64,000 bases of DNA, from positions 1,564-65,563 of the IMG/VR virus record IMGVR_UViG_3300032287_000883. One strand, written 5' to 3'. This document shows, piece after piece, positions 20,862 through 42,060 of this stretch. The notes beneath the pieces are model-generated. The model had not been told where the DNA came from and made no database searches. It was given only the letters and a program-made list of their open reading frames with translations. Source of the DNA: a virus. Lineage: Duplodnaviria; Caudoviricetes. A program made the translations under genes and the position numbers. Positions within the stretch are counted from its first letter, which is position 1. Every line of letters starts with the position of its first letter.

Positions 20862-21562
20862 AACGGCTCCCCGTTGTCTTCCGCTGTCTTATTTAATATC
20901 TCTAATGTGTCGATTTCTTGTGCATATTCCGGCTCATCTGCACATTTTTCATCATTTTCTGTGCATATCTTGGCTTCTAGCAGCCCCAATTCCTCTTCTA
21001 CTGAGGTTTTTTCGGGGGAGATGTCAATAATGTTGTTTTGCTGGGCAGCTAGCAAACGATTAATCTTGTCCGTAATAGCCGTTTTTAGATCGTCTGAAGT
21101 GCGGTGAGTAATAGTAACTTCGGACTTTTCTGTAAAAGCACCAACATCGGATAGCTTTCCCAGAAGCTCAATAGCTTTTAATTCGTAGCGGGCGTCGCCG
21201 CAGGAGGATATTTCAAGGAGGCGGTTGGTTATATATGTCCGTGCTTGGGTAGCATCTAGGACTACACGCTGGTCATACTCATTAAGTAGAGCCGACAACT
21301 TCAAGGCTACGTTACCTTGATACAGAGCAGCGGGATTGTATTGATCAGAAGCCGTTTTGTGTTTCTGCTTATCAACCTGCTTGAATAAGTCGTGGGCTAA
21401 CTTCTCATCCTCTTCCGTCATTTCGAAAGGCATGCCAAGTTCTGCCATGAGCGCTGCCGTACCAGCAGCTACACGAGCGTTATCCTGCAGGGTCGCGCCG
21501 AATTCATCGCCCAAATCTTTGGGGACGGGCACGCCATCTGTAGGTTGTATATGAATTGTCAT
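20858..21562 (-). CDS. terS: Terminase small subunit (probable)
   Basis: Directly upstream of terL; KAIELLGK..GAFTEK.E motif; likely start MTIHIQP at 21562. Confidence 0.65.
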   Translation of the reverse strand: MTIHIQPTDGVPVPKDLGDEFGATLQDNARVAAGTAALMAELGMPFEMTEEDEKLAHDLFKQVDKQKHKTASDQYNPAALYQGNVALKLSALLNEYDQRVVLDATQARTYITNRLLEISSCGDARYELKAIELLGKLSDVGAFTEKSEVTITHRTSDDLKTAITDKINRLLAAQQNNIIDISPEKTSVEEELGLLEAKICTENDEKCADEPEYAQEIDTLEILNKTAEDNGEPL

Positions 21563-21677
21563 GTTCTGCCTTGTCTGGGAGACAGATAAATAAGTGCTGG
21601 TACTCACCGCCCGGGCAAAACGTATCTCCGCGTTTCCACCATATCGGCTTTCCCAACGACGCGAAATATAACACATC

Positions 21678-21881
21678 TTTTCAAAAAATATATACCCCCC
21701 GGGGGGTTGCGATTTGAAAAGGCAAGGGGGGGCCTTTCTATATATTAGTATGTGAAGATATGTTGTTATTTTTGTATGGGGGGGGGGCATTTTAAAATTT
21801 GCTCTTGTAATGAGTAAAACACGGTGTAGATGGCGCGATAGGGTGGTAATCAAAATTTTGGGGGGTGGGTACTGGGTGGGG
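21678..21881. other. G/C homopolymer palindrome and G-tract region (possible packaging/terminus site)
   Basis: TTTTCAAA..ACCCCCCGGGGGGT..TTTGAAAA; G7 and G10 runs; G6-T-G3-TACT-G3-T-G4. Confidence 0.5.
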
Positions 21882-21896
21882 TCGGCGGTCTGGGCG

Positions 21897-21922
21897 AAAA
21901 AAAACCCGCCAGATCGGCGGGT
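21897..21922 (-). terminator. Terminator of leftward early gene 21945..22586
   Basis: ACCCGCC-GATCT-GGCGGG-T8. Confidence 0.85.
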
Positions 21923-21944
21923 CAAGGTGTTGCTGAGGATTTGC

Positions 21945-22586
21945 TTAGAGTTTATCGGTTGGTATCGCTTCAACCAACATGTCGAGAATTGTTTGAAGTA
22001 GATCAAGGTCGGTGCATTTACCCGCTTCAATCTTTACCGCTCCGCGAAGGGTTTTTAGTTCTTCCCCATGTTCTTTGTTCTCGGCGGATTGTTTCACTTT
22101 CAAAACCTTATCAAGTTCTTTGACTTGTTTTGCTGCTTCCTTGTTAGTGGGATTCTTGGCTAGCGTTTGATATGCTGCTTCCATCTGAGCGCGGATCATG
22201 GTCGGCGTCAAGTCTCCATGCTTTGCAAGTATCTCGACGGTTTTCTTTTCGCGTTCAATCCGCTTTTTCTCGGCTGCAACTGATACCGCTTTCGGTTTAA
22301 CCAGACCAAATAACTCGTCAAGTAAACCCGCAAAACGATTCCATGCCTTGTCGGCTGCGTTTCCGGTATTGTCTGGATTTGCTTCAACGTAACCTGATAC
22401 CCAACTAACCCGACCTGCTTCCCACTGATCGAATGTAGGATTTGTCCCTAGCATGCTAGCATATCCTTTCGCTGTCTCCAGATTAGCTAACTGATTACGT
22501 GCGAATTGAAAACCCGCGTCTCTTGCTGTTAATACCTGATCGGCTGATAATGCGGAGACTTGCTCCGCTATGATTTGCTTTTCCAT
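21945..22586 (-). CDS. Early helical protein (paralog A)
   Basis: RBS CAGGAGAAA; aligns with 22858..23430 (GT.PT...W.A.R....GYV...P...G.A.D.A..RF; AYQTLAKNP). Confidence 0.85.
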   Translation of the reverse strand: MEKQIIAEQVSALSADQVLTARDAGFQFARNQLANLETAKGYASMLGTNPTFDQWEAGRVSWVSGYVEANPDNTGNAADKAWNRFAGLLDELFGLVKPKAVSVAAEKKRIEREKKTVEILAKHGDLTPTMIRAQMEAAYQTLAKNPTNKEAAKQVKELDKVLKVKQSAENKEHGEELKTLRGAVKIEAGKCTDLDLLQTILDMLVEAIPTDKL

Positions 22587-22654
22587 CTTTATTTCTCCTG
22601 AGTTGATCGACCGGTCTGGTCTGACTCAATGACCCTACGTCATTAAGTTCTATG

Positions 22655-22683
22655 ATTATCGCGTTTTCCTACGCTAATAGCAA
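22655..22683 (-). promoter_or_regulatory. sigma70-type promoter for 21945..22586
   Basis: TTGCTA-17bp-GATAAT with an AT-rich UP-like region; spacer shares CGTAGGAAAA with the paralog's promoter. Confidence 0.65.
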
Positions 22684-22765
22684 GAAATATTTAAATTATT
22701 TTTTGTTGTCATTTTGTCTTTTTTGGGATTTAGGTTTTCGCTATCAACCCAGCCAAACTGATAGA

Positions 22766-22800
22766 TTTTGGGCAGGGAACGGTCATTCCAACGCATTAGC
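22766..22800 (+). repeat. 35-bp direct repeat, copy 1
   Basis: TTTTGGGCAGGGAACGGTCATTCCAACGCATTAGC; 34/35 identical to 23563..23597. Confidence 0.9.
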
Positions 22801-22814
22801 CACTTTTGGGCAAT

Positions 22815-22841
22815 AAAAAACCCCGCTGATTAGGCGGGGTT
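22815..22841 (-). terminator. Terminator of leftward early gene 22858..23430
   Basis: AACCCCGC-loop-GCGGGG-T6. Confidence 0.85.
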
Positions 22842-22857
22842 GGTTGGTCGGGGTTTA

Positions 22858-23430
22858 TTACTGGTATTGAATCAATACTTCAATTACTCGTTCTAAACAC
22901 TCAATACTTGTACAAGCTTTGATCTCGGCTATCGCTTCGTTGCGTAGTTCCTTGATCTCGTCACGCTCGGCTTTCTCGGTGTCGCGGGTTTTGATCTTCA
23001 ATACCTTCGCCAGTTCAGCGGCTTGGGCTTTCGCTACCTTGCTATCAGGATTTTTGGCTAGTGTTTGATAGCAAGCCTCAATCTGTGAGCGTAATACAGT
23101 TGCGGTTGCGTCAGCGTACTTGGTGATTAACTTATCCTCTTTCTCTTTACGCTCGGCGGCTTTTTTGATAGCGCCTTCACTTGTGGCTTTTGGTACTACG
23201 ACACCGAATCGTTCTACCAGTCTATCTTTGAACCGCTTAAACGCTTGGTCGGATGCATCGCCTTTCGCCTGTGGTTTGACGAATACATAACCGTTGATGA
23301 ATTCGACCCGAGCGGCTTGCCACGTTTCATAGGTTGGCTCGGTTCCTACTTCGCGAGCAAAAACTTCAAGGGATTCAACCGCATCAATCTCACTACGAGC
23401 GAACATTTCGCCTGATTTACTTGCACTCAT
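22858..23430 (-). CDS. Early helical protein (paralog B)
   Basis: RBS CTAGGAGAAA; paralog of 21945..22586. Confidence 0.85.
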   Translation of the reverse strand: MSASKSGEMFARSEIDAVESLEVFAREVGTEPTYETWQAARVEFINGYVFVKPQAKGDASDQAFKRFKDRLVERFGVVVPKATSEGAIKKAAERKEKEDKLITKYADATATVLRSQIEACYQTLAKNPDSKVAKAQAAELAKVLKIKTRDTEKAERDEIKELRNEAIAEIKACTSIECLERVIEVLIQYQ

Positions 23431-23481
23431 TTATTTCTCCTAGTTAAGACATAACGACCCGATGTCATTACGTCAGAATCA

Positions 23482-23511
23482 ATACTATTATTTTCCTACG
23501 ATAATATCCAA
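23482..23511 (-). promoter_or_regulatory. sigma70-type promoter for 22858..23430
   Basis: (T)TGGATA-17bp-TAGTAT; homologous to the promoter at 22655..22683. Confidence 0.5.
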
Positions 23512-23562
23512 TTGATTGTATCTATGGCTTTTGATATTGCAATAGTGAGAGTGTCCTTGCTT

Positions 23563-23597
23563 TTTTGGGCAGGGAACGGTCATTCCAACGCGTTAGC
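23563..23597 (+). repeat. 35-bp direct repeat, copy 2
   Basis: TTTTGGGCAGGGAACGGTCATTCCAACGCGTTAGC. Confidence 0.9.
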
Positions 23598-23652
23598 TAC
23601 TAATTGGGGAGAAGGCACGGGAGAGTTCCCTACGCGACATTTTGACATCGTG

Positions 23653-23955
23653 TCAGTCTGTCTTGTTGTCTAGGATATTCAAAAGCATGGCTCGTTCAAC
23701 ATCTAATTGTTTGAGGCGGCTTTCAGCGTAGGTAGTTGCAGATCGCTTACCCTTTCTAAAATTACATTGGGCACAAGCTACAACTAAATTAGATACCACA
23801 AACTCACCCCCTTCGGCTTCAGGATGAACATGGTCAAGATGGAGGCTTCGCCCCCTAAGACTCTTCTTACCGCAATATTGGCAGGTGCGCTTGTCCCGCT
23901 TAGTTACTTCGGCTCGGATTAACTCCAGCCTAAGGCGCTCAGGTATGAATGGCAT
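23653..23955 (-). CDS. HNH endonuclease
   Basis: RD..TCQYCG..LDHVHP..GG....NLV.AC..CN..KG; likely start MPFIPE. Confidence 0.85.
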   Translation of the reverse strand: MPFIPERLRLELIRAEVTKRDKRTCQYCGKKSLRGRSLHLDHVHPEAEGGEFVVSNLVVACAQCNFRKGKRSATTYAESRLKQLDVERAMLLNILDNKTD

Positions 23956-23983
23956 ACGCGTCCTTTTAGTTAAGCTGCAACGC

Positions 23984-24012
23984 AGCTTAAGTTTTTTATT
24001 TAAACTTGTCAA
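23984..24012 (-). promoter_or_regulatory. sigma70 promoter for the HNH gene
   Basis: TTGACA-17bp-TAAGCT. Confidence 0.7.
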
Positions 24013-24027
24013 GCACTTTTTTACCCT

Positions 24028-24451
24028 ATTGTTCGAAAAACCCAAAAATATAGAACATTACAATGAAATTTTCGAACATTATAAAATGCAGCTAACCCAT
24101 TGATTACATTGAACTTTGTCCTAAAATGTTATCAAAATTTTGTTAATTGTTCTGAAATGTTCTAATGTTCCGGCATTTTTCAGTATGTACGGATTTTTTA
24201 TTTCGAACGCGCTCATCGGCAAGTGTCGTTCTAAAAGCATACAAATTTTTTAGCTCCGCTCTCTCTATCTTTAAAACATAGAACATTAGGTACATTACGT
24301 ACAATCCGCATAAACATTGGGTTCTATTGTTCTATTATTTCTTTTTGACAAGGAACAATAGGTACATTTTCGAACAATAGCAAAAAGTCAATTGTTCTAA
24401 AAAACCAAAAATACAGAACATTACCCCGCTATTTTCGAACAATAGCAAAAA
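24028..24451. repeat. AT-rich array of GAACA(A/T)T heptamers (iteron-like)
   Basis: At least 12 close GAACAWT/AWTGTTC copies; 34-bp repeat at 24028/24391 (31/34); exact 21-bp repeat at 24366/24431. Confidence 0.8.
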
Positions 24452-24605
24452 CGACAACACGCATATTGCAGGCTCATGTAGCTCACTACAACCCTTCTCG
24501 ATACACTAAAAGCAAAGTGGTTAAGTTCCGCGCAAGTTGCCACCCCTGCCACCCTAAACTAAAAAGTTTTGCAATATACAAGGGCTTTAGAAGTAGGACA
24601 ATCAC

Positions 24606-24634
24606 TTGACATTGTATAGTTTCTATGTTATAAT
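24606..24634 (+). promoter_or_regulatory. Consensus sigma70 early promoter
   Basis: TTGACA-17bp-TATAAT with extended -10 TG. Confidence 0.9.
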
Positions 24635-24693
24635 AGAGGGGTTAGTGGGACTTCGCCCCTAACGTAACCACGACAATCTGACGGAGGGTCAAC

Positions 24694-24876
24694 ATGTCTA
24701 TTAATTACATCTCTTACTTGCAACGTATCGTAGATAACCCCGCAACGCCCCGCGTCGAGTACATGAGGGCATGGGAAGAACTACAGCACTTACTTATTGC
24801 ACAAGGCAGAGTTCTACTCGCTGCCGATAAGTACCACAAGAACAATGACAAGCTGACAGGTGGTCAGGATGTCTAA
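24694..24876 (+). CDS. Early hypothetical protein
   Basis: First ORF after the promoter; SD GGAGG. Confidence 0.7.
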   Translation: MSINYISYLQRIVDNPATPRVEYMRAWEELQHLLIAQGRVLLAADKYHKNNDKLTGGQDV

Positions 24877-25024
24877 ACAAAAGAAGAAGCTACGACCAAG
24901 CGTAGGCAGATGCCGAATCTGCTTGGTCAACAGCGTAGGTAAAAAACGACTTGCGTATGGTCACACCGTATGCGTCACATGCACCAAGAAGCACAACATT
25001 GAGGAGATATCAAATGAGCAATGA
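24869..25024 (+). CDS. C4 zinc-finger protein (51 aa, not in ORF track)
   Basis: MSKQKKKLRPSVGRCRICLVNSVGKKRLAYGHTVCVTCTKKHNIEEISNEQ. Confidence 0.7.
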   Translation: MSKQKKKLRPSVGRCRICLVNSVGKKRLAYGHTVCVTCTKKHNIEEISNEQ

Positions 25025-25226
25025 AGATGCACGGTATTTGTGCGTTGTATGTGGTGGGTACATCGACCATGCGAGATACGCTCTTGGTTACAAGCTATGC
25101 AAACCATGCGGGGAAGCTGCAGCCAAGCAGGTCAAGCATTGCATCGCACCGCTGAACAAGTCCAACTACTACTACATTAGTAGTATGGAAACACTAAAAC
25201 AACTCAACCCAAAGAGGACAACATGA
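25014..25226 (+). CDS. DksA/TraR-type C4 zinc-finger protein
   Basis: CVVCGGYIDHARYALGYKLCKPC; RBS GAGGAG before ATG 25014. Confidence 0.75.
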   Translation: MSNEDARYLCVVCGGYIDHARYALGYKLCKPCGEAAAKQVKHCIAPLNKSNYYYISSMETLKQLNPKRTT

Positions 25227-25462
25227 AAGGGATAAACGTAGATATGCGCGTACTGAAAATCAACGACAGCTATCAGAGCATGTTAGGCAACATCTTGCGG
25301 CTTATTGCACATCCAGAAACAACGCCGGAGCAACTGCAGAACGCGAGGGAGATGCTTATCGATGCCAACACCACGCTGAGAAACCTGCAGTTGGACTTGT
25401 TCACCGTAGGTTATGACTTTGATATCGTCAAGGGCATAACAAGTAACAGGAGGATGAGATGA
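25223..25462 (+). CDS. Early hypothetical protein
   Basis: ATGA coupling, RBS GAGG. Confidence 0.7.
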   Translation: MKGINVDMRVLKINDSYQSMLGNILRLIAHPETTPEQLQNAREMLIDANTTLRNLQLDLFTVGYDFDIVKGITSNRRMR

Positions 25463-25629
25463 AGCCACGCAAAAAGTATAGAGGGATAGTGGTGGTCAGG
25501 TATTACCAAACAGTCGAGGTAGAAGCTGAGTCCGAAGATAAAGCGCGAGAGCTTATGTATGACGAGTTCCATATGAATAAATGCACAGACCAAGACAGCG
25601 AAATATACGATTTTTGGGAGGTGGTATGA
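25459..25629 (+). CDS. Small early protein (56 aa, not in ORF track)
   Basis: MKPRKKYRGIVVVRYYQTVEVEAESEDKARE..; ATGA-coupled at both ends. Confidence 0.7.
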   Translation: MKPRKKYRGIVVVRYYQTVEVEAESEDKARELMYDEFHMNKCTDQDSEIYDFWEVV

Positions 25630-25814
25630 ATCAGGTCTGGTATGTGTGGGGCGAGAACGATAAGAACGACAGCTATTACCCAACGTTCTTTGATACGAAG
25701 CTAGCAGCAGAGAGATACGCACGCATCCTATTCCCTGACGAGGATGTATACAAGCGGGATGCGCGTGTCTATTACCGAGATGTTCTAACAATGTCTGACT
25801 TAAACGGAGGGTGA
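25626..25814 (+). CDS. Early hypothetical protein
   Basis: RBS GGAGG, start MNQVWYV. Confidence 0.7.
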   Translation: MNQVWYVWGENDKNDSYYPTFFDTKLAAERYARILFPDEDVYKRDARVYYRDVLTMSDLNGG

Positions 25815-25815
25815 G

Positions 25816-25974
25816 ATGAACAACGACAACATTTTTACAGTAGCAACGACGATAGTCGCTTGCGTAATGGTGGCATGGGGTCTGGACACAGACGGACGAT
25901 ACCTGCAACAGGCAACGCTTGTGATCGCAGGTGCAATAGTTGGTATTTTATTAAACGAAGGAGGAAAGCAATGA
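25816..25974 (+). CDS. Small two-helix membrane protein (not in ORF track)
   Basis: MNNDNIFTVATTIVACVMVAWG..TLVIAGAIVGILL; RBS GGAGG. Confidence 0.6.
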   Translation: MNNDNIFTVATTIVACVMVAWGLDTDGRYLQQATLVIAGAIVGILLNEGGKQ

Positions 25975-26066
25975 ACGACTATGAAAAGGTGGCGATGCTT
26001 GCCGCAATTATGGGTGGACTGTTGGGCACAGTCTTTGGTTTGATCTTAGCCTATTGGGTGATCTGA
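25971..26066 (+). CDS. Small single-pass membrane peptide
   Basis: RBS AGGAGG; MNDYEKVAMLAAIMGGLLGTVFGLILAYWVI. Confidence 0.6.
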   Translation: MNDYEKVAMLAAIMGGLLGTVFGLILAYWVI

Positions 26067-26272
26067 TGGGTACAAAAGGAAACGCACACAAGCTGCGTAA
26101 GCAAGTTGATATCGACAGGGCACGCGAGAGCGACGCTCTGTTGTATGGGTTCTTTGGTAAGAAAGCCGAGCCGGTAATCGAAGTGCAGAAACGCTTGAAC
26201 CAACAACTGCGTGCGCGTGAATTTAATAACATGACAGCAGAGATAAACGAAATAAACGCAACGACAAACTGA
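26066..26272 (+). CDS. Early hypothetical protein
   Basis: TGATG coupling; stop lies inside a 27-bp site. Confidence 0.55.
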   Translation: MGTKGNAHKLRKQVDIDRARESDALLYGFFGKKAEPVIEVQKRLNQQLRAREFNNMTAEINEINATTN

Positions 26273-26307
26273 CATGGTGTCAGTAAGTCACAATTAGGAG
26301 AAGCATC

Positions 26308-26559
26308 ATGGGTACATGGAGTGAAGAAATAGCAGGAGTAGAAGCAGTAGACCAAATGAAAGAAGTTGTTGAGTTGGCAGGTAACTTGCAATCTTCCTTG
26401 TTTGCTACCAAAGACAGCCTTGAGGAGGCATACACCTATGCGTATGAAATCATCAACGCATTACCGCCTGAACATCGAGCCGGAGTCATTACTGGTGTGC
26501 AGGTTCTTATCAACACAATCGCTGAAGAAATTAAGCGCAAAGCGGAGGGTAGAGTATGA
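26308..26559 (+). CDS. Early hypothetical protein
   Basis: RBS TAGGAG. Confidence 0.75.
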   Translation: MGTWSEEIAGVEAVDQMKEVVELAGNLQSSLFATKDSLEEAYTYAYEIINALPPEHRAGVITGVQVLINTIAEEIKRKAEGRV

Positions 26560-27539
26560 CTTTATATACAGGAGACCAACTGCCAAGACTTAATTCGTAT
26601 GAAGAAGCTCTGGCTTGGTATCACACAAGGGAACCGTACAAGAGGGGGCGTAGCAAAGGCTTGCGTCCGCTTGGTGATAACCGTCGATACGACCGCAGTC
26701 TTATTTCGTTGGATACCAACAGCGAAGGACAGAACATTGTCGTGTGTACGTTTCATAGCACACCAGTAGTTATGTTCTGCGAGGACGGTAGCGTGCTGAT
26801 GATGCACGATGGGCACGAGACTATATCTACGATGGACTTCATCAATGCCATTTTGTATACGAGATTTAGAGTACCGCCTAATAATAATCTTGTGAATGTG
26901 CATGTAGCGCAGAAGTGGTCAGGGATTACCAGACGGCGGGGGAAGCTGTATTTCTCTGATGGGCATGGCAAAGACCACAGGTTTGAGTCCGTACTAAAAC
27001 TTAGTGATACGAACGAAGTAACAGGTACAGCTACAGAAAGTGCATGGACATTGAACAAGGAACGTATGGGGAAACTCAGGAAGCATTACGCCGAGTTCAC
27101 CGAGTACCTAACTTACTATGCACAGATGATAGGTGAGACAAGGATAGCGGCTGTGATCACTGCAGTTGAGCCGTTGGGAACGACGGTAACTGAGATACGG
27201 TGGTCGGAGGACAGACATCTTAAGTCTAGGAAATTGTTCTTTATGGAGTTACATAACGCGATGCAAGCAACTGGGGAAGATAAGTATGGCGCGTTCCTAC
27301 TGTTAGCCGAGCAGGTGTTAGTAAATGCATCACAAAAAGTCTATGACTACAAGATGCAACAGTACAGGTATGCATGCACGCCTAGCAAAGCGAGAGATCA
27401 CTTCTATGATCTGTGCCGCTTCTACTATGCGAAGAGCTTGTTTACTAGAGAGGTAGTACCACAAGGCAAGATCGTGCTAGACGATAGCATGAAGTTTTTG
27501 AAATACGGTTCGGGTGAAGCTTTACCTTTTGAAGTATGA
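26556..27539 (+). CDS. Early hypothetical protein
   Basis: 327-aa ORF, ATGA-coupled. Confidence 0.8.
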   Translation: MTLYTGDQLPRLNSYEEALAWYHTREPYKRGRSKGLRPLGDNRRYDRSLISLDTNSEGQNIVVCTFHSTPVVMFCEDGSVLMMHDGHETISTMDFINAILYTRFRVPPNNNLVNVHVAQKWSGITRRRGKLYFSDGHGKDHRFESVLKLSDTNEVTGTATESAWTLNKERMGKLRKHYAEFTEYLTYYAQMIGETRIAAVITAVEPLGTTVTEIRWSEDRHLKSRKLFFMELHNAMQATGEDKYGAFLLLAEQVLVNASQKVYDYKMQQYRYACTPSKARDHFYDLCRFYYAKSLFTREVVPQGKIVLDDSMKFLKYGSGEALPFEV

Positions 27540-27588
27540 ACGACAACCTGACATGGTGTCAGTAAGTCTATAACTAGGAGAAACAAAA

Positions 27589-28650
27589 ATGGAAATTCGT
27601 ATGAACGTAGAAGTATCCCTTGCTGAAGCAGAAGAACTTATCCTTGCCGTTGGTAATGAGAACGCAGTACACCTTGTAGGTGAACCCGGAATCGGTAAAA
27701 CAGCCATGTATGAAAGACTAGTAGCAAGAACTGGTTATCGTGGTGTGTATATCGACACGCCTAATACCGAGCTAGGTGACATCGGTATCCCTATGCCGAA
27801 CCATGAGACCAAGACAACATCGCTGTATCCGAACGAGTTCTGGGGTTTCCATAAGCAAGAGCCGCTGATGATCTTCATCGACGAGTTCAGTAAGCCAAGC
27901 AGCCAAGCAGTACAGAACATGTTGCATCCGTTGTTGAACGAGCGTCGCATTGGTGGCATGAAGTTACATCCTGATAGCATCGTAGTGACTGCGGGTAACA
28001 ATATGTCCGATGGTGTAGGCGACATGCTGAAAGGTCATTCGATTAGTCGTATGACTATTACTCCCGTACGCAAACCATATTGGGATGAGTATGTGGATTA
28101 CGGTACTCGCGTTGGGTTTGCTCCCGAGTTGTTGGCTTTCGTACGTCAGTATCCACAAGTCATGGCGTCTTACAAAGACCCAACACAGAAGGAGAACAAC
28201 TACATCTACAACCCAAAGACACCGCAGAACTCTTACTTCTGCCCACGTTCAGGTCATCGTGCTAGCAACATATTGAAGAAGCGCCACATGATTACGCGAG
28301 GTGCATTGGTGGCATCGTTGTGCGGCACGATTGGTGAGTCAGCAGCGCGTGACTTGATTGCGTATGTCGAAGTATCAGACAAGCTGCCAACATGGGATGA
28401 GGTTATCCGTGACCCGAAGGGTGCGAGTGTACCTACCAACGCAGCAGCGTTATGCATCATGGCGTATGGCGCAGTACAGAAGATTGATCGCGGCAACATC
28501 AGCGCATGGTTCGAGTATCTGAAACGTACACCGAAAGAGTTGCAGTCTGTGTTCTGTGTTACCACAAGTAAGAACGAGGACAAGAAGAACATCTTGATGA
28601 CGAGTTCATCGTTCGTCAACTGGATGCGTGAGAACCAATATTTATTCTAG
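27589..28650 (+). CDS. MoxR-like AAA+ ATPase
   Basis: Walker A GEPGIGKT, Walker B MIFIDEF, AGN sensor; next to a VWA gene. Confidence 0.88.
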   Translation: MEIRMNVEVSLAEAEELILAVGNENAVHLVGEPGIGKTAMYERLVARTGYRGVYIDTPNTELGDIGIPMPNHETKTTSLYPNEFWGFHKQEPLMIFIDEFSKPSSQAVQNMLHPLLNERRIGGMKLHPDSIVVTAGNNMSDGVGDMLKGHSISRMTITPVRKPYWDEYVDYGTRVGFAPELLAFVRQYPQVMASYKDPTQKENNYIYNPKTPQNSYFCPRSGHRASNILKKRHMITRGALVASLCGTIGESAARDLIAYVEVSDKLPTWDEVIRDPKGASVPTNAAALCIMAYGAVQKIDRGNISAWFEYLKRTPKELQSVFCVTTSKNEDKKNILMTSSSFVNWMRENQYLF

Positions 28651-28659
28651 GAGAAAGTT

Positions 28660-28896
28660 ATGGAAGATAACGATTCGAAAGTAGTTCACGACTTAATCGA
28701 CAAGATAGGTAACGTGATTGATGGGGCCAACATGGGGCATGTTATCCCTGCCCTTATCTATTTGTTAGCTACATCACAGAGTAACGAGATCATGTCAGAG
28801 GAACATTTTGTTAAGAGCGTAGCAGAGGATTTGCTCAACTGGTTCGTTACATTTAAGAAAGCCGAAGCGACAGGAGGTTCAGAATGGCTACAGTAA
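28660..28896 (+). CDS. Hypothetical protein
   Basis: RBS CTAGGAGAAA. Confidence 0.7.
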   Translation: MEDNDSKVVHDLIDKIGNVIDGANMGHVIPALIYLLATSQSNEIMSEEHFVKSVAEDLLNWFVTFKKAEATGGSEWLQ

Positions 28897-30158
28897 AACT
28901 ATCCGCAGAGAAGCGGGTTGAACGTGCCCATGCACAGCTAATGAGAAACAAAGATTTCTGTTTGTTCTCAGGTGTGTTCATGGTGGGTAAGGTATCGGTT
29001 AGCGATAGCGTACCAACTGCAGTAACTAACGGTAGGGACGTGACGTATGGTCGCGCCTTTGTTGATTCCCTAGATGACAAGCAACTTGCCTTTGTCGTGG
29101 TACACGAAGCTATGCACAAAGCCTACCGTCATTTGTCGGTATGGAAAGGTATAGCTAGAGAGAACCCACGCCTAGCCAACGCAGCTATGGACTTTGTTAT
29201 TAACTTACAGATCGTAGACTCCGACCCGAATGGTCAGGTAGTTACTATGCCACGCGACGCCGAAGGTAAGATGATCGGTTTGCTAGACGAGAAGTATCGT
29301 GACATGGATACCAAGCAAGTTTACGAGCTACTCAAGAAGGAGTGTGAGGGTGGCGACAGAGGCGGCGATGGTGGACAAACTGACGGTGGGTCAGGAAGTC
29401 CTACGAGTGGTAAGCAAGGCAATGGCAAACACAATGATCATGGTAGTGGCGGAGAGAATTTTGACGAACATGATTGGGAAGGTGCTAATGAATTATCTAA
29501 AGCCGATGAGGATGAGCTAACTCAGGAGATCGACAACGCGTTACGTGAGGGGGCTATTCTAGCAGGGAAAATGAAGGGCAACGTTCCACGCGGTATTGAC
29601 GAGCTACTACATCCCCGAGTTGATTGGAAAGAAGCATTGCGTATGTACGTCAAGGCAAGCGTACGTGGTGGTGACAAATCAACATGGCGTAGACCTAACC
29701 GTAGGTTCCTTGGTATGGACATCATCATGCCTAGTTCTATATCAGAGAGGGCAGGGACGATTGCTGTGGGCGTTGATCTATCAGGTTCTATCGGTGCTAT
29801 GGCAGCGCAGTTCATGGGTGAGGTTCAATCTATATGCCTTGACGTTGCGCCTGAGATAGTTGAACTACTGTATTGGGATAGCCACGTAACAAACCACGAA
29901 ACTTATCGTGATGCAGAAGTAGCTAACCTTATTAACAGCACGAAGCCCAAAGGTGGTGGTGGTACACAACCAGAGTGTGTGCCTATCTATCTCGAAGCCA
30001 AGAGCATTACGCCACAGTGCATCATCATGCTAACCGATGGTGAGTTCTATGGTGATGGGTGGAAAGAGTGGAGTCGTGTATCTGCACCTGTGTTGTGGTG
30101 TGTGGTGGGTAACAAAGACTTTGTGCCGCAGTATGGTCAATCTATTTATGTAGGGTAA
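28884..30158 (+). CDS. Metallopeptidase-VWA protein (DUF2201-like)
   Basis: PTAVTNG, HEAMH (HExxH), N.A.D..IN, Gly-rich linker, MIDAS DLSGS, GGGGT, LTDG. Confidence 0.88.
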   Translation: MATVKLSAEKRVERAHAQLMRNKDFCLFSGVFMVGKVSVSDSVPTAVTNGRDVTYGRAFVDSLDDKQLAFVVVHEAMHKAYRHLSVWKGIARENPRLANAAMDFVINLQIVDSDPNGQVVTMPRDAEGKMIGLLDEKYRDMDTKQVYELLKKECEGGDRGGDGGQTDGGSGSPTSGKQGNGKHNDHGSGGENFDEHDWEGANELSKADEDELTQEIDNALREGAILAGKMKGNVPRGIDELLHPRVDWKEALRMYVKASVRGGDKSTWRRPNRRFLGMDIIMPSSISERAGTIAVGVDLSGSIGAMAAQFMGEVQSICLDVAPEIVELLYWDSHVTNHETYRDAEVANLINSTKPKGGGGTQPECVPIYLEAKSITPQCIIMLTDGEFYGDGWKEWSRVSAPVLWCVVGNKDFVPQYGQSIYVG

Positions 30159-30171
30159 GGAGAAAATAAAA

Positions 30172-31062
30172 ATGAACGCTATAACGGAAACCCCTAAGTT
30201 TGAAACCTTTGGTATTGCATCGTCATCGTTGCTTATCGAGCTTAGTATATCTTGCTGGACTGCTAGGAAACTGGACAAGAAGGTAGGCATGGAAGTGGAT
30301 GCTTCCAAGAACACTAAGGTGAAAGCAGGTAACTACCATAAGCACCTGTTAGCAGGTAGCCCCGCGCTTGAAGCGGTGGTTAAGTATGCAGCGCAAACAC
30401 GCTTGTGGAATAACTTGAACACTATGCCGTGGTCAGACAACGGACAACGCATCGTGACAGCCGAGCATTTCTTCAATGGGTTCAAGTCGCAGATGGATGT
30501 GCATAAGAATAGCTTTGATGAACTGACTGCTAATTTCCTACAACAATACCCAACGCTAATATCTGCGGCGGCTTTTCAATTGGGTGATCTGTTTGATCGA
30601 GAGGAGTATCCCGATGTGGAGGAGATCGCGCATAAGTTTCGCTTTCACTATTCTGTTAGCCCTGTGCCGACAGCAGGAGACTTCCGCATTGACATCAACG
30701 AGCAAGCCAAAGCCGAGCTTGCTAATCAGTACGCCGAGCATTTCAATCAGCGTCTTGATGGAGCCATGCGTGACATATGGGGTAGGTTGCATGAATGTCT
30801 TACGCACATGAGCGACAGACTGACAGATAGTCAGGATGGGAAGCGTAGGATATTCCACGATACGATGCTATCAAATGCGGATAGTCTGGTGGATTTGTTA
30901 GGTCGTCTCAATGTAACGAACGACCCCAAGTTGGAAGATGCGCGTACGCAGTTACGTAGAGCGATAAGCAATGTAGAAACCGATGATCTCAAGGAACGCG
31001 AAGAAGTACGTTCTGAAGTTAAAGAGAAAGTCGATAGTATCTTAGCTAAATTTGATTGGTAA
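30172..31062 (+). CDS. Helical protein accompanying the AAA/VWA module (DUF3150-like)
   Basis: WTARKLD..K.LL..F...YP..LGDLF..EYP..KF.F; context. Confidence 0.6.
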   Translation: MNAITETPKFETFGIASSSLLIELSISCWTARKLDKKVGMEVDASKNTKVKAGNYHKHLLAGSPALEAVVKYAAQTRLWNNLNTMPWSDNGQRIVTAEHFFNGFKSQMDVHKNSFDELTANFLQQYPTLISAAAFQLGDLFDREEYPDVEEIAHKFRFHYSVSPVPTAGDFRIDINEQAKAELANQYAEHFNQRLDGAMRDIWGRLHECLTHMSDRLTDSQDGKRRIFHDTMLSNADSLVDLLGRLNVTNDPKLEDARTQLRRAISNVETDDLKEREEVRSEVKEKVDSILAKFDW

Positions 31063-31072
31063 GGGAGACAAC

Positions 31073-31936
31073 ATGCAAGTAAATAGAATACCTAATCACC
31101 ATGATCTTCCATTGTATGCACCGTTGGAGGAGATACTCACTAAGTTGTATCTCAAGATACCAAGACTTAATTTTTTATCGAGAGACGCAGGGTTCATGAA
31201 CGGCGAGCCTAACAGTATATGCGGGGTCGTTGTGTACAACGGCAACGAGAAAGTGGGCGAGATTAACGTAGAGTGGAAGATGCATAGAGGTGGTGACTAT
31301 AGCAATGTATATACCGTATATTCGCCACGTATTAAGAACCGTATATCGCCACGCAATTCTAAGGTAAGTAAGATATATGCTGAAGCATTGAAGGTAGCGG
31401 TGAAGATATTTTCTGCGACATCCTCTACGGCTGAAGTTATTGCCCATGTTAAACAGAAGATGAATACAGAGATAGGTGGCGTGCGATACAACGCAGTACG
31501 TCAAACCGAAAGGATAGGTGAAGAGTATCTTATTCCACTAATGGACTTTGTTATGGCAACACATAGAGGGGAGATGCCAACCCTTGGTGCGGGGTTGAAT
31601 AAGCTTGTAGCTCAACCCAACTTAGATAAGATGCTAAACACAGCGAGGATTGCTGCAGTTGTTGATAACGATTTTAAATCAGGCAGCGGTGTTGTCATAC
31701 GAGAGGAGCGAGACGGTACACTAACAAGTATTGAACTAGATACAAAGCTGTTTGATGATGCGCGTGTACGTAGTCTTAAGGATACGTATGCTTTACCAGA
31801 GTTGTATCAGACTAAGCTAGCTATGCTCCGTATATTAGAACATAGCCAACCAGTAGAATCTATCGGTGTTAAGTTTTCAATTGAGAATACCAATTGGTAT
31901 TACTTAACAGGCGGTGAGATAATCATAACCAGTTAA
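31073..31936 (+). CDS. Hypothetical protein
   Basis: Long ORF; RBS AAGGGAG before ATG 31073. Confidence 0.8.
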   Translation: MQVNRIPNHHDLPLYAPLEEILTKLYLKIPRLNFLSRDAGFMNGEPNSICGVVVYNGNEKVGEINVEWKMHRGGDYSNVYTVYSPRIKNRISPRNSKVSKIYAEALKVAVKIFSATSSTAEVIAHVKQKMNTEIGGVRYNAVRQTERIGEEYLIPLMDFVMATHRGEMPTLGAGLNKLVAQPNLDKMLNTARIAAVVDNDFKSGSGVVIREERDGTLTSIELDTKLFDDARVRSLKDTYALPELYQTKLAMLRILEHSQPVESIGVKFSIENTNWYYLTGGEIIITS

Positions 31937-31963
31937 CGTTCAGCAACGATAACTTCCGTTTTT

Positions 31964-32004
31964 AGGGGACAAGTTGACGGCATGTCAGTTTGTCCCCTTT
32001 TTTT
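31964..32004 (+). terminator. Terminator of the early operon, built from a 27-bp dyad site
   Basis: AGGGGACAAGTTGAC-GGCAT-GTCAGTTTGTCCCC-T7. Confidence 0.8.
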
Positions 32005-32052
32005 ATCTATCAATAATTCCAACGCGATAGCTAAAATAAATAGCAAAAGCTA

Positions 32053-32082
32053 TTGCACCCCTCCTCATTTCCATTCTATACT
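32053..32082 (+). promoter_or_regulatory. Possible promoter of the replication operon
   Basis: TTGCAC-18bp-TATACT directly after the terminator. Confidence 0.5.
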
Positions 32083-32112
32083 GAGTCCACTTGTATCTAC
32101 AGCGAGAGTGGA

Positions 32113-32403
32113 ATGTCTACCCCCGAAGGCAAAGTTAAAACCAAAGTTCGCGCTGAGTTAATGCGGCGTAGCGTTTACCATTTCATGCCCGCTACTGGTG
32201 GGTATGGTCGTAGCGGTGTCCCTGATATCGTAGGTTGTTACCGAGGACATTTCTTTGCGATAGAAACAAAAGCGGGGAACAATAAACCCACTGCGTTACA
32301 AGAGCGAGAACTCAAACAAATACGCGATGCTGGTGGCATAGCCTTTGTTATCAACGAAACTAATATAGATGAATTGGTAGCGTGGTTGGACACGCTGCCG
32401 TGA
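32113..32403 (+). CDS. VRR-NUC domain nuclease (resolvase-like)
   Basis: TPEGKVK..GVPDIV..FAIETKA..PTALQ..I..AGG.A.V. Confidence 0.88.
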   Translation: MSTPEGKVKTKVRAELMRRSVYHFMPATGGYGRSGVPDIVGCYRGHFFAIETKAGNNKPTALQERELKQIRDAGGIAFVINETNIDELVAWLDTLP

Positions 32404-32437
32404 TGACCGATTCAATGACCGTTCCCTAGGAGAAACT

Positions 32438-32887
32438 GTGAGAAAACTAATACAAAAAACTACGTACAAATTATGCAGCACCGAAGTCAAGATGTTGATC
32501 GACAAACTTGAAGAACATAGAGATGACTTAGGGCTTAGTGTCTTATCAAATAGGTTATCGCCTTCGCATGGCTTTATGCATATAGCCCGTGCCGGAAAGT
32601 TTACTTTTATGGAGAGTATTGCCTTAGCCTCTAAGCTAAATGAAATACACAGGGCAGCTACTAAGTTTTCTATAGTTGAAGCTGTCTTTCAATCTAAAGA
32701 AGAGAAAGAAATTCGCAACCGTGCGCAGTACAAGTCTCAGATGCCTAGTAAGATCATAGGTACTCAACATATAGTAGAGCAAGCAAAGGGGCTACTCGAA
32801 AAAGAATTGGCTAAAAGTTATAACAAACAGCTCAACGATCACATCAACGTTCACGTAGAAAGAGCGTGTAAGGATGGGTTGCTATGA
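32438..32887 (+). CDS. Hypothetical protein
   Basis: RBS CTAGGAGAAA, GTG start. Confidence 0.7.
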   Translation: MRKLIQKTTYKLCSTEVKMLIDKLEEHRDDLGLSVLSNRLSPSHGFMHIARAGKFTFMESIALASKLNEIHRAATKFSIVEAVFQSKEEKEIRNRAQYKSQMPSKIIGTQHIVEQAKGLLEKELAKSYNKQLNDHINVHVERACKDGLL

Positions 32888-32900
32888 ACGGAAGACGGTA

Positions 32901-34760
32901 ATGAACATAATCACAATTGATTTCGAGACGTACTACGATCAAGAGTTTAGCTTATCAAAGTTAACTACTGAGGAATACGTTCGCGATGATCGCTTTGAAG
33001 TTATCGGTGTAGCAGTCAAAGTTGGTGACAATGATACCGAATGGTTTAGCGGTGACTTTGATAGTACCAAGAAGTTCCTGATGCAATACGATTGGACTAC
33101 TCACCTTGTTCTTGCACACAACATGCTATTCGATGGCGCGATTATGTCGTGGAGGTTTGGTATCAAACCATTAGGTTGGCTTGATACGTTAGCTATGGCG
33201 CGTGCTATTGACGGTATAGAAGTTGGGAACAGCTTGGCAAAACTTGCAGATCGTTACGCGTTAGGCACTAAAGGCACTGAAGTTATTGCAGCGAAGGGGA
33301 TGCGCCGTAAGGATTTTAAGTCGGAGCAGTTAGAACAGTACGGCAATTACTGTATCAATGATGTTGAGATTACCTACAAACTATTTCACGCACTTGGGGA
33401 AGGTATCAATAAGAAAGAATTAAAACTGATTGATTTGACCCTTAGCATGTTTATCGAGCCGACGCTAGAGTTAAATCTGCCATTGCTTGAGCAGCATCTA
33501 ATTGATGTGGTTGAGCGTAAAGAAAAACTTATTGCCGAAGCAAATTCAGATAGAGAAACATTACTATCCAATCCTAAGTTTGCGGAACGCTTGCAGCAGC
33601 TTGGGGTTATACCGCCAATGAAAATTAGCCCCACTACAGGCAAAGAAACGTTGGCACTTGCTAAGAGTGATGAAGGGTTCAAAGCATTAGCCGAACATCC
33701 TGATGAACGAGTGCAAGCATTAGTCGCTGCGCGGTTGGGAACTAAGTCTACATTGGAAGAGACAAGGACACAGCGGCTCATCGACATCGCAAAGCGGGGC
33801 AAGATGCCAGTCCCACTACGCTACTACGCAGCGCACACAGGTCGTTGGGGCGGCGATGATAAGTTAAACCTACAAAACTTACCGAGCCGTGGCAAAGACA
33901 AGAACACACTAAAGACAGCGATATGCCCTCCGCAAGGATACGTGATGATTGATGCCGACTCTGCACAGATCGAAGCAAGGATTATTGCTTGGCTATCAGG
34001 ACAGAAAGATTTAGTCGTAGCCTTTGAAGAAGGTCGTGATGTGTACAAGATTATGGCGGGAAAGATTTATCGTAAATCGACAGATGACGTTTCAGAAGAA
34101 GAGCGGTTTGTAGGTAAGACCACAATTCTCGGTGCGGGTTACGGCATGGGTGCGGTGAAGTTTCAGATGCAGTTGAGTACGTTTGGCGTGTACATCCCCT
34201 TAGATTTTTGCAAGAAGATTTTAAATACCTACCGAGAAGAGTTTGGGCACATACCTAGGTTGTGGGATCAGGCGGGTAGTTGCATAGAGTTGTTAGCGCG
34301 GGGAGATATAAGGGCTGCACCGTTCGGCGTTCAACCAGATGCTACGTACTTTATGCCGGGGGTTGGGTTTGATATGCCAAGCGGTATCCCGCAAAAATAT
34401 CCGGGGATTAGGATTAGTGGACAGACAGCAGATGTTTTTCGTCACACACTTGAGATTATCTACGATACAAGAAAAGGCCCAAATCGAATCTATGGCGGTA
34501 AGGTAGTAGAGAACATTTGTCAGGGACTTGCACGGTGCGTGATAGGTGAACAGATGTTAAAGATTGCGCAGCGGTACAAGGTGGTGCTAACCGTTCATGA
34601 TGCTGTGGCTTGTATTGCACCGATAGCAGAAGCTGAAGAAGCAGCGCGTTATGTACAAGAGTGTATGCGTTGGAGACCTAAGTGGGCGGAGACATTGCCA
34701 TTGAACTGTGAAGTAAAAATGGGTGACAGCTATGGCGGCGCTAAAAAATGGAAGGGGTAG
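32901..34760 (+). CDS. polA: DNA polymerase family A with 3'-5' exonuclease
   Basis: IDFETY, AHN..FD, Y.I.DV exonuclease motifs; TGRW, NLQNLP, D.AQIEAR (A), R..GKTTILG.GYG (B), TVHD (C). Confidence 0.95.
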   Translation: MNIITIDFETYYDQEFSLSKLTTEEYVRDDRFEVIGVAVKVGDNDTEWFSGDFDSTKKFLMQYDWTTHLVLAHNMLFDGAIMSWRFGIKPLGWLDTLAMARAIDGIEVGNSLAKLADRYALGTKGTEVIAAKGMRRKDFKSEQLEQYGNYCINDVEITYKLFHALGEGINKKELKLIDLTLSMFIEPTLELNLPLLEQHLIDVVERKEKLIAEANSDRETLLSNPKFAERLQQLGVIPPMKISPTTGKETLALAKSDEGFKALAEHPDERVQALVAARLGTKSTLEETRTQRLIDIAKRGKMPVPLRYYAAHTGRWGGDDKLNLQNLPSRGKDKNTLKTAICPPQGYVMIDADSAQIEARIIAWLSGQKDLVVAFEEGRDVYKIMAGKIYRKSTDDVSEEERFVGKTTILGAGYGMGAVKFQMQLSTFGVYIPLDFCKKILNTYREEFGHIPRLWDQAGSCIELLARGDIRAAPFGVQPDATYFMPGVGFDMPSGIPQKYPGIRISGQTADVFRHTLEIIYDTRKGPNRIYGGKVVENICQGLARCVIGEQMLKIAQRYKVVLTVHDAVACIAPIAEAEEAARYVQECMRWRPKWAETLPLNCEVKMGDSYGGAKKWKG

Positions 34761-41817: not shown

Positions 41818-42060
41818 ATGGACAACCGTGGTTACGCTTCAAGAATCACCAAAGCGAACTTAGCGGCTAGTGTGGAAAGCCCCGGTGTAGCGCTGGGGCG
41901 CTTCTGCATTACCAAAGAAATTCCAGTATCAGATGTAGCAGAATATTTTGGCGTTAGTAGGATGACTATCTACAAATGGTTTGTAGGCGAATGGGTACCT
42001 CGCAAATCTAACGCTGAAAAGATATGGGACATGCTGAAACGAGCTAAGTTCTCCCTATAA
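41818..42060 (+). CDS. Cro/CI-type HTH DNA-binding protein
   Basis: VSDVAEYFGVSRMTIYKWF.G...P. Confidence 0.8.
   Translation: MDNRGYASRITKANLAASVESPGVALGRFCITKEIPVSDVAEYFGVSRMTIYKWFVGEWVPRKSNAEKIWDMLKRAKFSL

Follow-up and report, generated by a model that had tools for sequence, protein, structure and literature searches.

What is the function of ten copies of one interrupted dyad in the early region of an uncultivated freshwater phage? The question is raised by virus record IMGVR_UViG_3300032287_000883 (Duplodnaviria; Caudoviricetes), of which we analysed bases 1564-65563; the record is 65,563 bp long and rated complete by CheckV. This whole stretch of 64,000 nucleotides is called the window, and positions are counted from its first letter. 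An initial annotation had described ten 27-bp dyads of the form GAC-N4-TGAC-N5-GTCA-N4-GTC between 22623 and 31994 and proposed an operator system like the stoperators of mycobacteriophages. The dyad is a genuine control element of the early region: it is strongly non-random, occurs throughout the lineage and has undergone a natural switch of specificity. Most likely, the dyads are a shared cis-regulatory signal of the lineage's early transcription units that is read sequence-specifically by a phage factor.

The exact pattern occurred seven times in the window, against 0.00 expected from 100 dinucleotide shuffles. At two mismatches or fewer there were 11 matches, namely the ten sites and an overlapping offset at 23644 (shuffle mean 0.14, maximum 1), and the reversed-pattern control gave 0. 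Across the whole record, TGAC-N5-GTCA was found nine times, always within a site, the tenth site (23448) having CGAC; GAC-N5-GAC-N5-GTC was found ten times, precisely at the ten sites. For a position weight matrix (PWM), 166 unique sites from relatives served as the training set, and those of the window itself were excluded. The PWM exceeded 8 bits at 11 positions, again the ten sites and the offset, with scores of 14.2-37.6 bits; scores above 8 bits were absent from 19 of 20 Markov genomes, and the remaining one had a single score, of 9.4. Pattern, mismatch and PWM scans thus returned the ten sites first reported, and by the whole-record pattern scan and the PWM the site density outside 22623-31994 was zero, in agreement with the remark that none had been seen elsewhere. 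The sites are as follows.

Site 1: 22623..22649, minus strand; 1 mismatch; 6 bp past the -10 of a leftward promoter, in the leader of the gene for a 213-amino-acid (aa) paralog
Site 2: 23448..23474, minus strand; CGAC for TGAC on the plus strand; in the leader of the 190-aa paralog gene, 17 nt before the ATG
Site 3, the distal site: 23636..23662, no strand assigned; shares sequence with the 3' end of an HNH gene; site 2 is about 190 bp further downstream
Site 4: 24672..24698, plus strand; about 38 nt past the early promoter; its loop GGAGG is a Shine-Dalgarno (SD) sequence
Site 5: 24847..24873, plus strand; takes in the gene 1 stop codon together with the SD (AGGTG) and start codon (ATG) of g2Zn, a Zn-ribbon gene
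Site 6: 26263..26289, plus strand; over a stop codon and ahead of the next RBS, the next start being 19 nt on
Site 7: 27542..27568, plus strand; between the 327-aa gene and the MoxR-type AAA ATPase gene, ahead of the ribosome-binding site (RBS)
Site 8: 29374..29400, plus strand; within the DUF2201/VWA gene
Site 9: 30814..30840, plus strand; 2 mismatches, in the outer right unit; within the gene for a 296-aa DUF3150-like protein
Site 10: 31968..31994, plus strand; core of the terminator 31964-31998, at which the early operon ends and which ranks best in the region

The placement past promoters, over start and stop codons, in two coding sequences and in the terminator was as the initial annotation had it, and every site lies within a transcribed or plausibly transcribed stretch. 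The leftward dyads begin 5-8 bp past the -10 of both paralog promoters, that is, at about +1. At site 4 the ATG at site positions 23-25 starts the first early gene; among the 219 context-unique sites collected from relatives, 60 open a reading frame of at least 30 codons at these positions, and because this is near the random frame estimate of about 24%, only individually checked start-codon cases count. The terminator 31964-31998 has 15 or 16 pairs (-22 kcal/mol) followed by a run of seven T, a T-run being absent from the other nine sites. A reading of the dyad's CTGACA as a sigma-70 -35 was ruled out, no consistent -10 being found behind it by eye. Rfam 15 gave three weak matches in 21500-33000, all below the gathering score and none on a dyad.

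The HNH gene at site 3 encodes a 100-aa endonuclease (23653-23955, minus strand; Pfam E 6e-13) with homologs in 0 related loci. The gene is found in this genome only, the distal site being at the matching place in relatives G003, G004 and G005, and the gene is probably a recent homing insertion beside it.

The element extended well beyond this record. In IMG/VR its strict 18-base form, GACAANCTGAC-N5-GTCAG-N3-GTC, occurred in 78 stretches, many with 2-8 matches, and the contigs with the GACAANCTGAC pattern all have the same early operon (for example, the ATPase gene in 45 loci and the VWA gene in 43). A control variant pattern without TGAC/GTCA gave 20 stretches, of which 17 were single and chance-like and three came from one clade. 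The exact sites of five relatives (52-70 kb) numbered 8, 11, 6, 8 and 8 and in each case fell into a stretch of 7.9-10.2 kb, with 0 for the reversed control, and ATPase identity to the window across the phages with TGAC sites was 53-88%. Positions were conserved as well: in 5/5 genomes a site stands directly ahead of the ATPase gene, another between the last operon gene and the VRR-NUC gene, and another at or beside the start of the first gene of the g2Zn/g3Zn family. A proximal and a distal site precede the 190-aa paralog gene in the four genomes with a recognisable paralog, and successive operon sites are mostly 1.1-1.9 kb apart.

The initial annotation had suggested a conservation check at the two in-gene sites. 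The counterpart of site 29374 keeps one codon phase in about 20 context-unique relatives, within a hypervariable linker, as the proposal would have it. For this site the check is answered at synonymous as well as linker positions. Site 30814 is kept in close relatives and not beyond them. The linker that houses the dyad at 29374 joins the DUF2201 metallopeptidase-like and VWA domains of the protein encoded at 28884-30158 (plus strand); it covers about residues 160-200, is Gly-rich and varies strongly in both length and sequence. By these results the sites are genuine, lie in a single region, keep their positions between relatives and are subject to selection at the nucleotide level. An entire lineage of uncultivated phages carries the dyad as its signature. 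When 185,579 species genomes of bacteria and archaea were searched, the strict motif occurred in 69 stretches from unrelated taxa, each with a single site (4 palindromic sites being counted on both strands), and such single scattered matches give no sign of a host regulon or of prophages.

The 219 context-unique sites, oriented by their neighbouring genes, gave the consensus g-GACA-w-n-C-TGAC-A-nnnn-GTCA-G-n-w-TGTC-c. Outside the core, the preferred bases were the following.

Position 0: G in 138/219
Position 4: A in 200/219
Position 7: C in 173/219
Position 12: A in 148/219
Position 21: G in 171/219
Position 24: T in 185/219
Position 28: C in 96/219

The core itself is symmetric and nearly invariant, with C 218 and T 1 at position 27, A 217 and G 2 at position 20, and C 189, A 27, G 3 and T 0 at position 19. 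The scan fixed most core positions at one mismatch or fewer, so that this near-invariance is partly by construction, although the choice among the allowed mismatches is still informative: changes compatible with a G·U pair were almost never used in the core of the 219 sites. Covariation is absent from the spacer pairs 5/23 and 6/22, which are rich in A/T and in which A·A is the most frequent combination (75/210 unique sequences). Equal invariance of both arms together with the near-absence of G·U is more in keeping with duplex DNA recognised in a two-fold manner than with a structural stem in RNA. A wobble bias was also absent overall, with G·U 63 against A·C 56 in the spacers and 7 against 5 in the inner stem. 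The sense strand paired better than the antisense strand in 59 sites and worse in 57, and hybrids that break pairing persist (TGAC..GTAA in 6 unique sites, TGAC..ATCA in 4).

A natural switch in the site bears on the existence of a reader. Three contigs without TGAC sites had GAC-N4-TTAC-N5-GTAA-N4-GTC at the same places, in 8, 7 and 6 exact copies plus one TTAC..GTGA each; their ATPases are 76-77% identical to that of the window. Both arms changed alike and the outer GAC/GTC units were unaltered. Since this clade is nested among TGAC phages, the switch is derived, and since loops and spacers stayed site-specific, each site changed separately. Such a concerted switch at every site implies a trans-acting, sequence-specific reader. 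On these sequences, the simplest reading is that the specificity of the reader was altered at one base pair of the inner unit. Inner and outer units would then be read differently, as otherwise the outer unit would have changed too. The trans factor is probably phage-encoded.

How such a factor might act depends on the transcription units in which the sites lie. Leftward structural and packaging genes (terminase, portal, capsid) occupy 1-22586 and rightward genes 24694-44927; the paralog pair sits between the two blocks. The features concerned are listed here.

Paralog gene pair: 21945..23430, minus strand; 213 aa at 21945-22586 and 190 aa at 22858-23430
Promoter-like site of the 213-aa paralog gene: 22655..22683, minus strand; TTGCTA-17-GATAAT
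Putative second leftward promoter, placed by eye: about 23478-23507, minus strand; has TTGnnAnTAnCGTAGGAAAA in common with the promoter at 22655..22683
Early promoter: 24606..24634, plus strand; TTGACA-17-TATAAT with extended -10 TG; 12/12 match, best in the region
Early operon: 24694..31936, plus strand; 7.3 kb, with small open reading frames (ORFs), two CxxC-x16-CxxC Zn-ribbon genes and a 327-aa protein of no assigned function
Further genes of the early operon, within 24694..31936, plus strand: MoxR AAA ATPase, DUF2201/VWA, DUF3150-like and a 294-aa protein of no recognised function
Zn-ribbon gene g2Zn: 24869-25024, plus strand
Zn-ribbon gene g3Zn: 25014-25226, plus strand

Each paralog gene is a unit of its own sigma-70-like promoter, dyad, gene and terminator (terminators at 21903-21923 and 22819-22841). 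Beyond the terminator 31964-31998 follow genes for a VRR-NUC nuclease, DNA polymerase A, a PD-(D/E)XK exonuclease, an SNF2 helicase, an 80-aa helix-turn-helix (HTH) protein and a DUF927 primase.

We suggest that the dyad is an operator and roadblock at the DNA level, with a secondary use of its transcript as a hairpin, a model we hold with a confidence falling just short of even. The reader would be a dimeric DNA-binding protein, each subunit spanning a half-site of 11-12 bp, with the outer GACA and inner TGAC(A) units contacted by different parts of the protein. At the monocistronic paralog genes, a site at about +1 would be an ordinary operator. The 7.3-kb early operon would be transcribed by host RNA polymerase (RNAP) from the consensus sigma-70 promoter, and its copies, 1.1-1.9 kb apart, would be roadblocks that shut off or gate early transcription in the manner of stoperators. 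Because the site is palindromic, its transcript folds. Fully paired copies with a U-run serve as the operon terminator and well-paired copies as 5' leader hairpins, the internal copies being kept imperfect. The VWA site is kept in phase within its gene, and an RNA-processing or translational site makes little sense there. We infer from these patterns the reader's action on duplex DNA, its repressing effect and any identity proposed for it below.

Several observations weigh against recognition at the level of DNA alone. The early promoter's dyad lies at about +38, off the promoter itself. The minor asymmetric positions track the direction of transcription: the mirror of A12, T at position 16, was present in only 51/219 sites against 148 for A12, and G0 (138) likewise exceeded C28 (96), so the element is slightly directional relative to transcription, which a plain symmetric dimer does not predict. 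In 4/5 genomes the operon-end copy, with G and C runs around it and then a T-run, is a terminator; the fifth has two tandem operon-end copies and no T-run. Among 23 unique sites with a T-run, spacers were paired in 35/46 cells against 23.0±3.1 expected. Counting G·U, full pairing was seen on the transcribed strand in 34/219 sites and on the opposite strand in 10; it was confined to sense in 26 sites and to antisense in 2 (12 and 2 without the T-run sites), counts that do not amount to a probability because related sites are not independent. Within the window, site 1 forms an uninterrupted 10-bp hairpin on its transcribed strand and site 2 an 11-bp hairpin with two G·U pairs, which are two A·C mismatches on the opposite strand; together the two sites have three G·U pairs in sense, all of them A·C on the other strand.

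The paralog leaders point the same way. Their hairpins keep a loop of the form RYNGG (ATAGG, ATGGG, ATTGG, ATCGG, ACAGG, GTAGG), and in several lineages the stems are wholly different yet paired, with G·U and compensatory changes between orthologs (loci L059, L077, L041 and L014, and the 213-aa paralog of L006, L007 and L075); one of these comparisons chose the best hairpin, which leans towards pairing, and another was anchored on the loop. The site of the 213-aa paralog in one subclade reads TGAG/CTCA (three unique sequences, one ortholog set). Compensatory and concerted changes are thus present across relatives, contrary to the initial statement that there were none. Non-terminator sites were depleted in spacer pairing (89/266 against 106.4±6.8), as were sites within ORFs (21/80 against 29.6±3.3), so that single-strand folding is under selection at non-terminator sites too, where a continuous stem appears to be avoided. 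Some copies are used as RNA hairpins. Finally, no binder was identified among the candidates examined, and the only recognised HTH protein, encoded at 41818..42060 (80 aa), has the same recognition helix, VSRMTIYKWF, in the TTAC genome and in the window. Of the DNA-binding protein first proposed, the sequence-specific factor is upheld by arms that are invariant in about 200 unique sites and by the TTAC switch; recognition of DNA only is put in doubt by the terminator, the sense pairing and the covarying leaders.

The same evidence favours an element read at the RNA level, which we consider a serious though doubtful possibility. Transcript hairpins with a conserved internal loop of 2x2 to 3x3 would be read by a phage RNA-binding protein, for example a small Zn-finger protein like Mu Com or an antiterminator or terminator factor, with a role in termination or read-through into the replication genes, in mRNA stability or in translation starts, and the perfect copies would be the terminator and 5' stabiliser forms of one module. 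Operon-end terminators in 4/5 genomes, full pairing specific to sense (26 against 2), covarying leader hairpins with a conserved loop, the compensatory variants TGAG/CTCA and AGAC/GTCT, directionality at A12 and G0 and the location of every site in transcribed or plausibly transcribed DNA all speak for it. So do the moderate stability of the hairpins (-8.1 to -13.9 kcal/mol) and the presence of an SD in the loop with an ATG at positions 23-25 at 24672, at 24847 and at g2Zn of the TTAC genome G003; selection against pairing at internal spacers could reflect a required internal loop. Intercistronic hairpins occur at analogous places in the related phage Pag-Yong1, where they look more like mRNA elements, and this too tells against a DNA operator. 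In known RNA operator hairpins, however, loops or bulges are read and stems covary, and here the reverse is seen, 14 stem positions being conserved and the loop free. The core stems are almost without G·U, wobble bias is absent overall, the pairing-breaking variants TGAC..GTAA (6) and TGAC..ATCA (4) persist, no Rfam family matches, and conserved copies inside coding sequences are hard to explain by processing or translation control.

An improbable alternative dispenses with a dedicated reader: the dyads would be structural elements only (terminators, attenuators, mRNA-stabilising hairpins) that share a sequence by descent, duplication or homogenisation, like repetitive extragenic palindromes (REP) or miniature inverted-repeat transposable elements (MITE). 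Hairpin potential everywhere, the documented terminator and leader uses and the quite different repeat that a relative carries at the same kind of place agree with this. It does not explain why 14 core positions are invariant over phages whose ATPases are down to 53% identical while loops and spacers are free, and neutral descent or gene conversion fails where one base pair was switched in every site of a clade with loops remaining site-specific; moreover, imperfect stems are actively kept and positions are syntenic, not scattered. We give similarly little weight to a box for a host transcription factor, RNase or RNAP-associated protein, with the TTAC clade living in a host whose factor differs in specificity. 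The motif is more conserved than any candidate phage regulator, the phage binder was not found and the lineage appears reliant on host RNAP, all of which would suit such a box. Yet the host factor named in the initial annotation finds no counterpart in the 69 single, scattered and chance-like matches among 185,579 genomes, which form no cluster (the host may lie outside the collection, or the box may be looser), against 78 stretches in IMG/VR, many of them multi-copy. Hardly credible is a signal in single-stranded or cruciform DNA, such as N4-like hairpin promoters for an injected RNAP or priming, injection or packaging signals. Dyads could extrude as hairpins, and among the phage's proteins is a polyvalent one of 2543 aa that is probably injected; Pfam, PHROGs and PDB sequence searches detected no RNAP domain in this protein, the interrupted arms disfavour extrusion, and a consensus sigma-70 promoter already serves the operon. 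Furthermore, two sites contain the start codon of the following gene and so cannot be its upstream promoters.

If a phage protein reads the dyad on DNA, as we favour, several candidates present themselves. The HTH protein had been the first suggestion; its recognition helix differs in the TGAC genomes G001, G002 and G004 and does not follow the site switch, a pattern that argues weakly against it. The paralog pair, likewise proposed as binder, evolves fast, with invariant columns at 7/213 and 12/190, and a PDB sequence search gave chance-like matches only; the paralogs look like regulated targets instead. The paralogous g2Zn and g3Zn are the first universally conserved early genes, and in 5/5 genomes the first gene of this Zn-ribbon family begins in or just after a dyad or has a dyad within its first codons. 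In the A-Y-G-H motif of g2Zn, Tyr30 is present in all of at least 17 TGAC sequences seen, Phe in the three TTAC contigs and Leu in locus L085, whose sites are the mixed variants AGAC/GTCT and GTAC/GTAT. This correlation covers two lineages, and one such position among 14 invariant columns is not unusual compared with other proteins; a further search for g2Zn variants returned the known contigs and one new one, with no new variants. g2Zn as the reader is therefore a weak lead from sequence comparison.

The structural comparison allowed another role for these proteins. The AlphaFold 2 (AF2) model of g3Zn (mean predicted local distance difference test, pLDDT, 74.6) had no Foldseek match at E of 0.001 or lower, and its local overlaps with TraR, DksA and DksA2 (33-35 columns, root-mean-square deviation 1.3-1.9) were non-significant. 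Proteins of the DksA/TraR type have a C4 zinc finger and a helical part that enters the RNAP channel; here the CxxC-x16-CxxC spacing is present and PHROG 54 matched at E 0.0083, and long N-terminal helices are absent. g2Zn and g3Zn could equally be modulators of RNAP. Screens for specificity-determining positions, across loci and across five whole genomes, gave a weak signal, with 6/20 for the 83-aa protein encoded at 26308-26559, based on only 6 TGAC sequences. Another 83-aa protein, very basic and of the DUF6321 family (11921-12172, minus strand; Pfam E 5e-19), lies among the head genes and is 79-92% identical in five genomes. It scored 7/67 in the screen; in the TTAC genome it has a 3-residue deletion and changes clustered at residues 30-39, a loop, and these are probably irrelevant to the site switch. 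The TTAC genome G003 is without the stretch from DNA polymerase to SNF2, so a binder encoded there would be missed. A fuller scenario combines several of these elements: a strictly lytic lineage without its own RNAP in which the tiny, autoregulated g2Zn (51-63 aa), its own RBS inside a dyad, performs stoperator-like shut-off or gating of the whole early regulon, with site and reader switched together (TGAC/Tyr30 to TTAC/Phe30) and the dyad serving as both duplex operator and RNA hairpin. Taken as a whole, we think this scenario unlikely.

Among known systems, the stoperators of Cluster A mycobacteriophages (L5 gp71 type) deserve comparison. They are described as a short asymmetric site bound by a monomer (PMC6550527; PMC9283540). 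They resemble the dyads in having many copies of one short site within transcription units, often at gene junctions, with few in promoters. Density is also similar, with roughly one site every 1-2 kb, related lineages differ in their consensus, and a block of elongation has been proposed (PMC6550527). They differ in numbering 20-30 spread genome-wide, compared with 10 in 9.4 of 65.5 kb here and 6-11 per early block of 8-10 kb in relatives; in being asymmetric, where the present site is an interrupted two-fold dyad of 27-29 bp; and in belonging to temperate phages with an immunity repressor and an integrase or parABS, no integrase having been found here, nor a repressor homolog among the proteins scanned. 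Some of the present copies also double as RNA terminators or leader hairpins, unlike stoperators. By this analogy, stoperators are the closest system in working logic: the dyad may be said to work like one without being a member of the class. The analogy first drawn thus stands for a multi-site regional system and falls for asymmetry, genome-wide spread and temperate immunity. The carrier state and the mark on first-injected DNA that were suggested along with it are speculative readings. Literature on multi-site phage operators, within a limited search, concerned mainly temperate phages, and the stoperator work was all on mycobacteriophages.

Other systems share single features with the dyad. 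The conserved inverted repeats (CIR) of the temperate Streptomyces phage phiC31 are simple repeats of about 17 bp bound by the c repressor; they too lie as multiple inverted-repeat copies in the early region, near promoters or between genes, with one phage reader. Ribonucleic antiterminator (RAT) hairpins of BglG/SacY/LicT and the lambda nut/boxB sites are leader RNA sites of about 15-30 nt, linked to terminators and read by dedicated proteins that co-vary with the site. They are few per genome, RAT overlaps a separate terminator and the boxB loop is read, whereas here the loop is free, the stems are fixed and copies lie within genes. The proteins scanned included none recognised as CAT/PRD or N-like. 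C-boxes of restriction-modification C proteins have four GAC/GTC triplets at steps of about 8 bp over about 26 bp and an HTH reader bound as a dimer of dimers. Their order is GACT-N3-AGTC twice (→←→←) at one site, compared with →→←← at ten sites here, and no restriction-modification genes were seen among the proteins scanned. RNase III sites of T7-type early mRNA need RNA that is largely double-stranded over about two turns (20 bp or more), a length that the dyads do not reach, their stems having at most 11 pairs with an internal loop, the terminator copy (15 or 16 pairs) aside. N4 hairpin promoters have a 5-7 bp stem and a 3-nt loop upstream of the start and are read by the virion RNAP; the dyads have a 5-nt loop, and two contain a start codon.

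Related phages carry other repeats. Pag-Yong1 (L131, OL906435) has 22 copies of GGTTCAG-N-CTGAACC at 8816-47583, in early and late genes, mostly between a stop codon and the next RBS and about 15-25 nt before starts, including one before the ATPase gene. It is like the window in being a related phage with annotated ATPase and VWA genes and one dyad at many gene junctions; its dyad differs in having arms of 6-7 bp and a centre of 1-3 nt. We know of no description of the Pag-Yong1 dyad. In Pseudomonas phage Rollin (L091/L092, OR577172) the motif is absent; AAGGTAG-N7-CTACCTT occurs at 3-480 and at 61266, with five copies clustered near the start of the record. In the papers searched on this phage group, the terms 'promoter' and 'palindrom' were absent and 'motif' appeared once, unrelated; the search was limited, and the element could still be described.

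By capsid, the nearest isolates are Planktothrix phage Pag-Yong1 and its twins (73% identical) and HTVC023P-type pelagiphages (about 63%); by primase, the nearest is Rollin (32%). HTVC027P, an isolate of the HTVC023P type, is described as being without an RNAP and relying on that of its host, with early genes all of unassigned function (PMC12753301). In the window's phage, no RNAP was found in the large proteins scanned, including the 2543-aa protein (Pfam, PHROGs, PDB sequence search); a genome search with PF00940 was blank, and equally blank controls make it uninformative. Neither a tyrosine nor a serine recombinase (PF00589, PF00239) turned up when the whole record was searched in six frames, with controls detected; this bears out the initial statement that no integrase was visible, and no repressor homolog was found among the proteins scanned. 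A tRNA search found none, and megablast of the region against the phage collection gave no match.

Several neighbouring features were recorded beside the dyads. The 2543-aa polyvalent protein (45234-52865, minus strand) combines an LPD39 domain with a C-terminal region that resembles DarB-type antirestriction proteins (PHROG 10089, E 1.5e-47), and it is probably injected together with the DNA. For the 296-aa protein, DUF3150 was an Atlas lead (12-17% of cluster members), and the 327-aa protein had no lead from Atlas; for these two and the 2543-aa protein, PDB sequence searches returned nothing useful. Both leftward paralog promoters are preceded, at a distance of about 70-130 bp, by a non-coding block of some 35 bp, GGAACGGTCAT-N-YCAACG-N-GTTAGC (22735-22790 and 23565-23600). 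G003, G004 and G005 keep this block although the proteins of relatives are only 40-80% identical; in these relatives a GGGAATTCCC-like palindrome and the distal dyad come after it. An activator site is one possible function, a piece of a small RNA another. The stretch 24000-24460, which separates the early promoter from the distal dyad, is AT-rich with dense short repeats (gaacatta, ttcgaacaatagcaaaaa), and its counterparts in G005 and G003, the relatives compared, also carry TGCCTAAAAAATAGGCA palindromes; this stretch looks like an origin or a protein-binding array. A weak promoter-like TTGTCC-16-AATAAT at 31990-32017 (plus strand, 9/12) takes the right arm of the terminator dyad as its -35 and could be the start of the replication-gene operon.

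Multi-site control of this kind is rare in phages that only kill. A bounded signal shared by the whole family gives a first handle on the timing of early genes in such phages, and through it the early regulon can be defined without experiment. Thanks to the natural switch from TGAC to TTAC, simple binding tests can identify the reader. Should the dyad be read by a small protein, the pair would be a compact, orthogonal operator/hairpin module.

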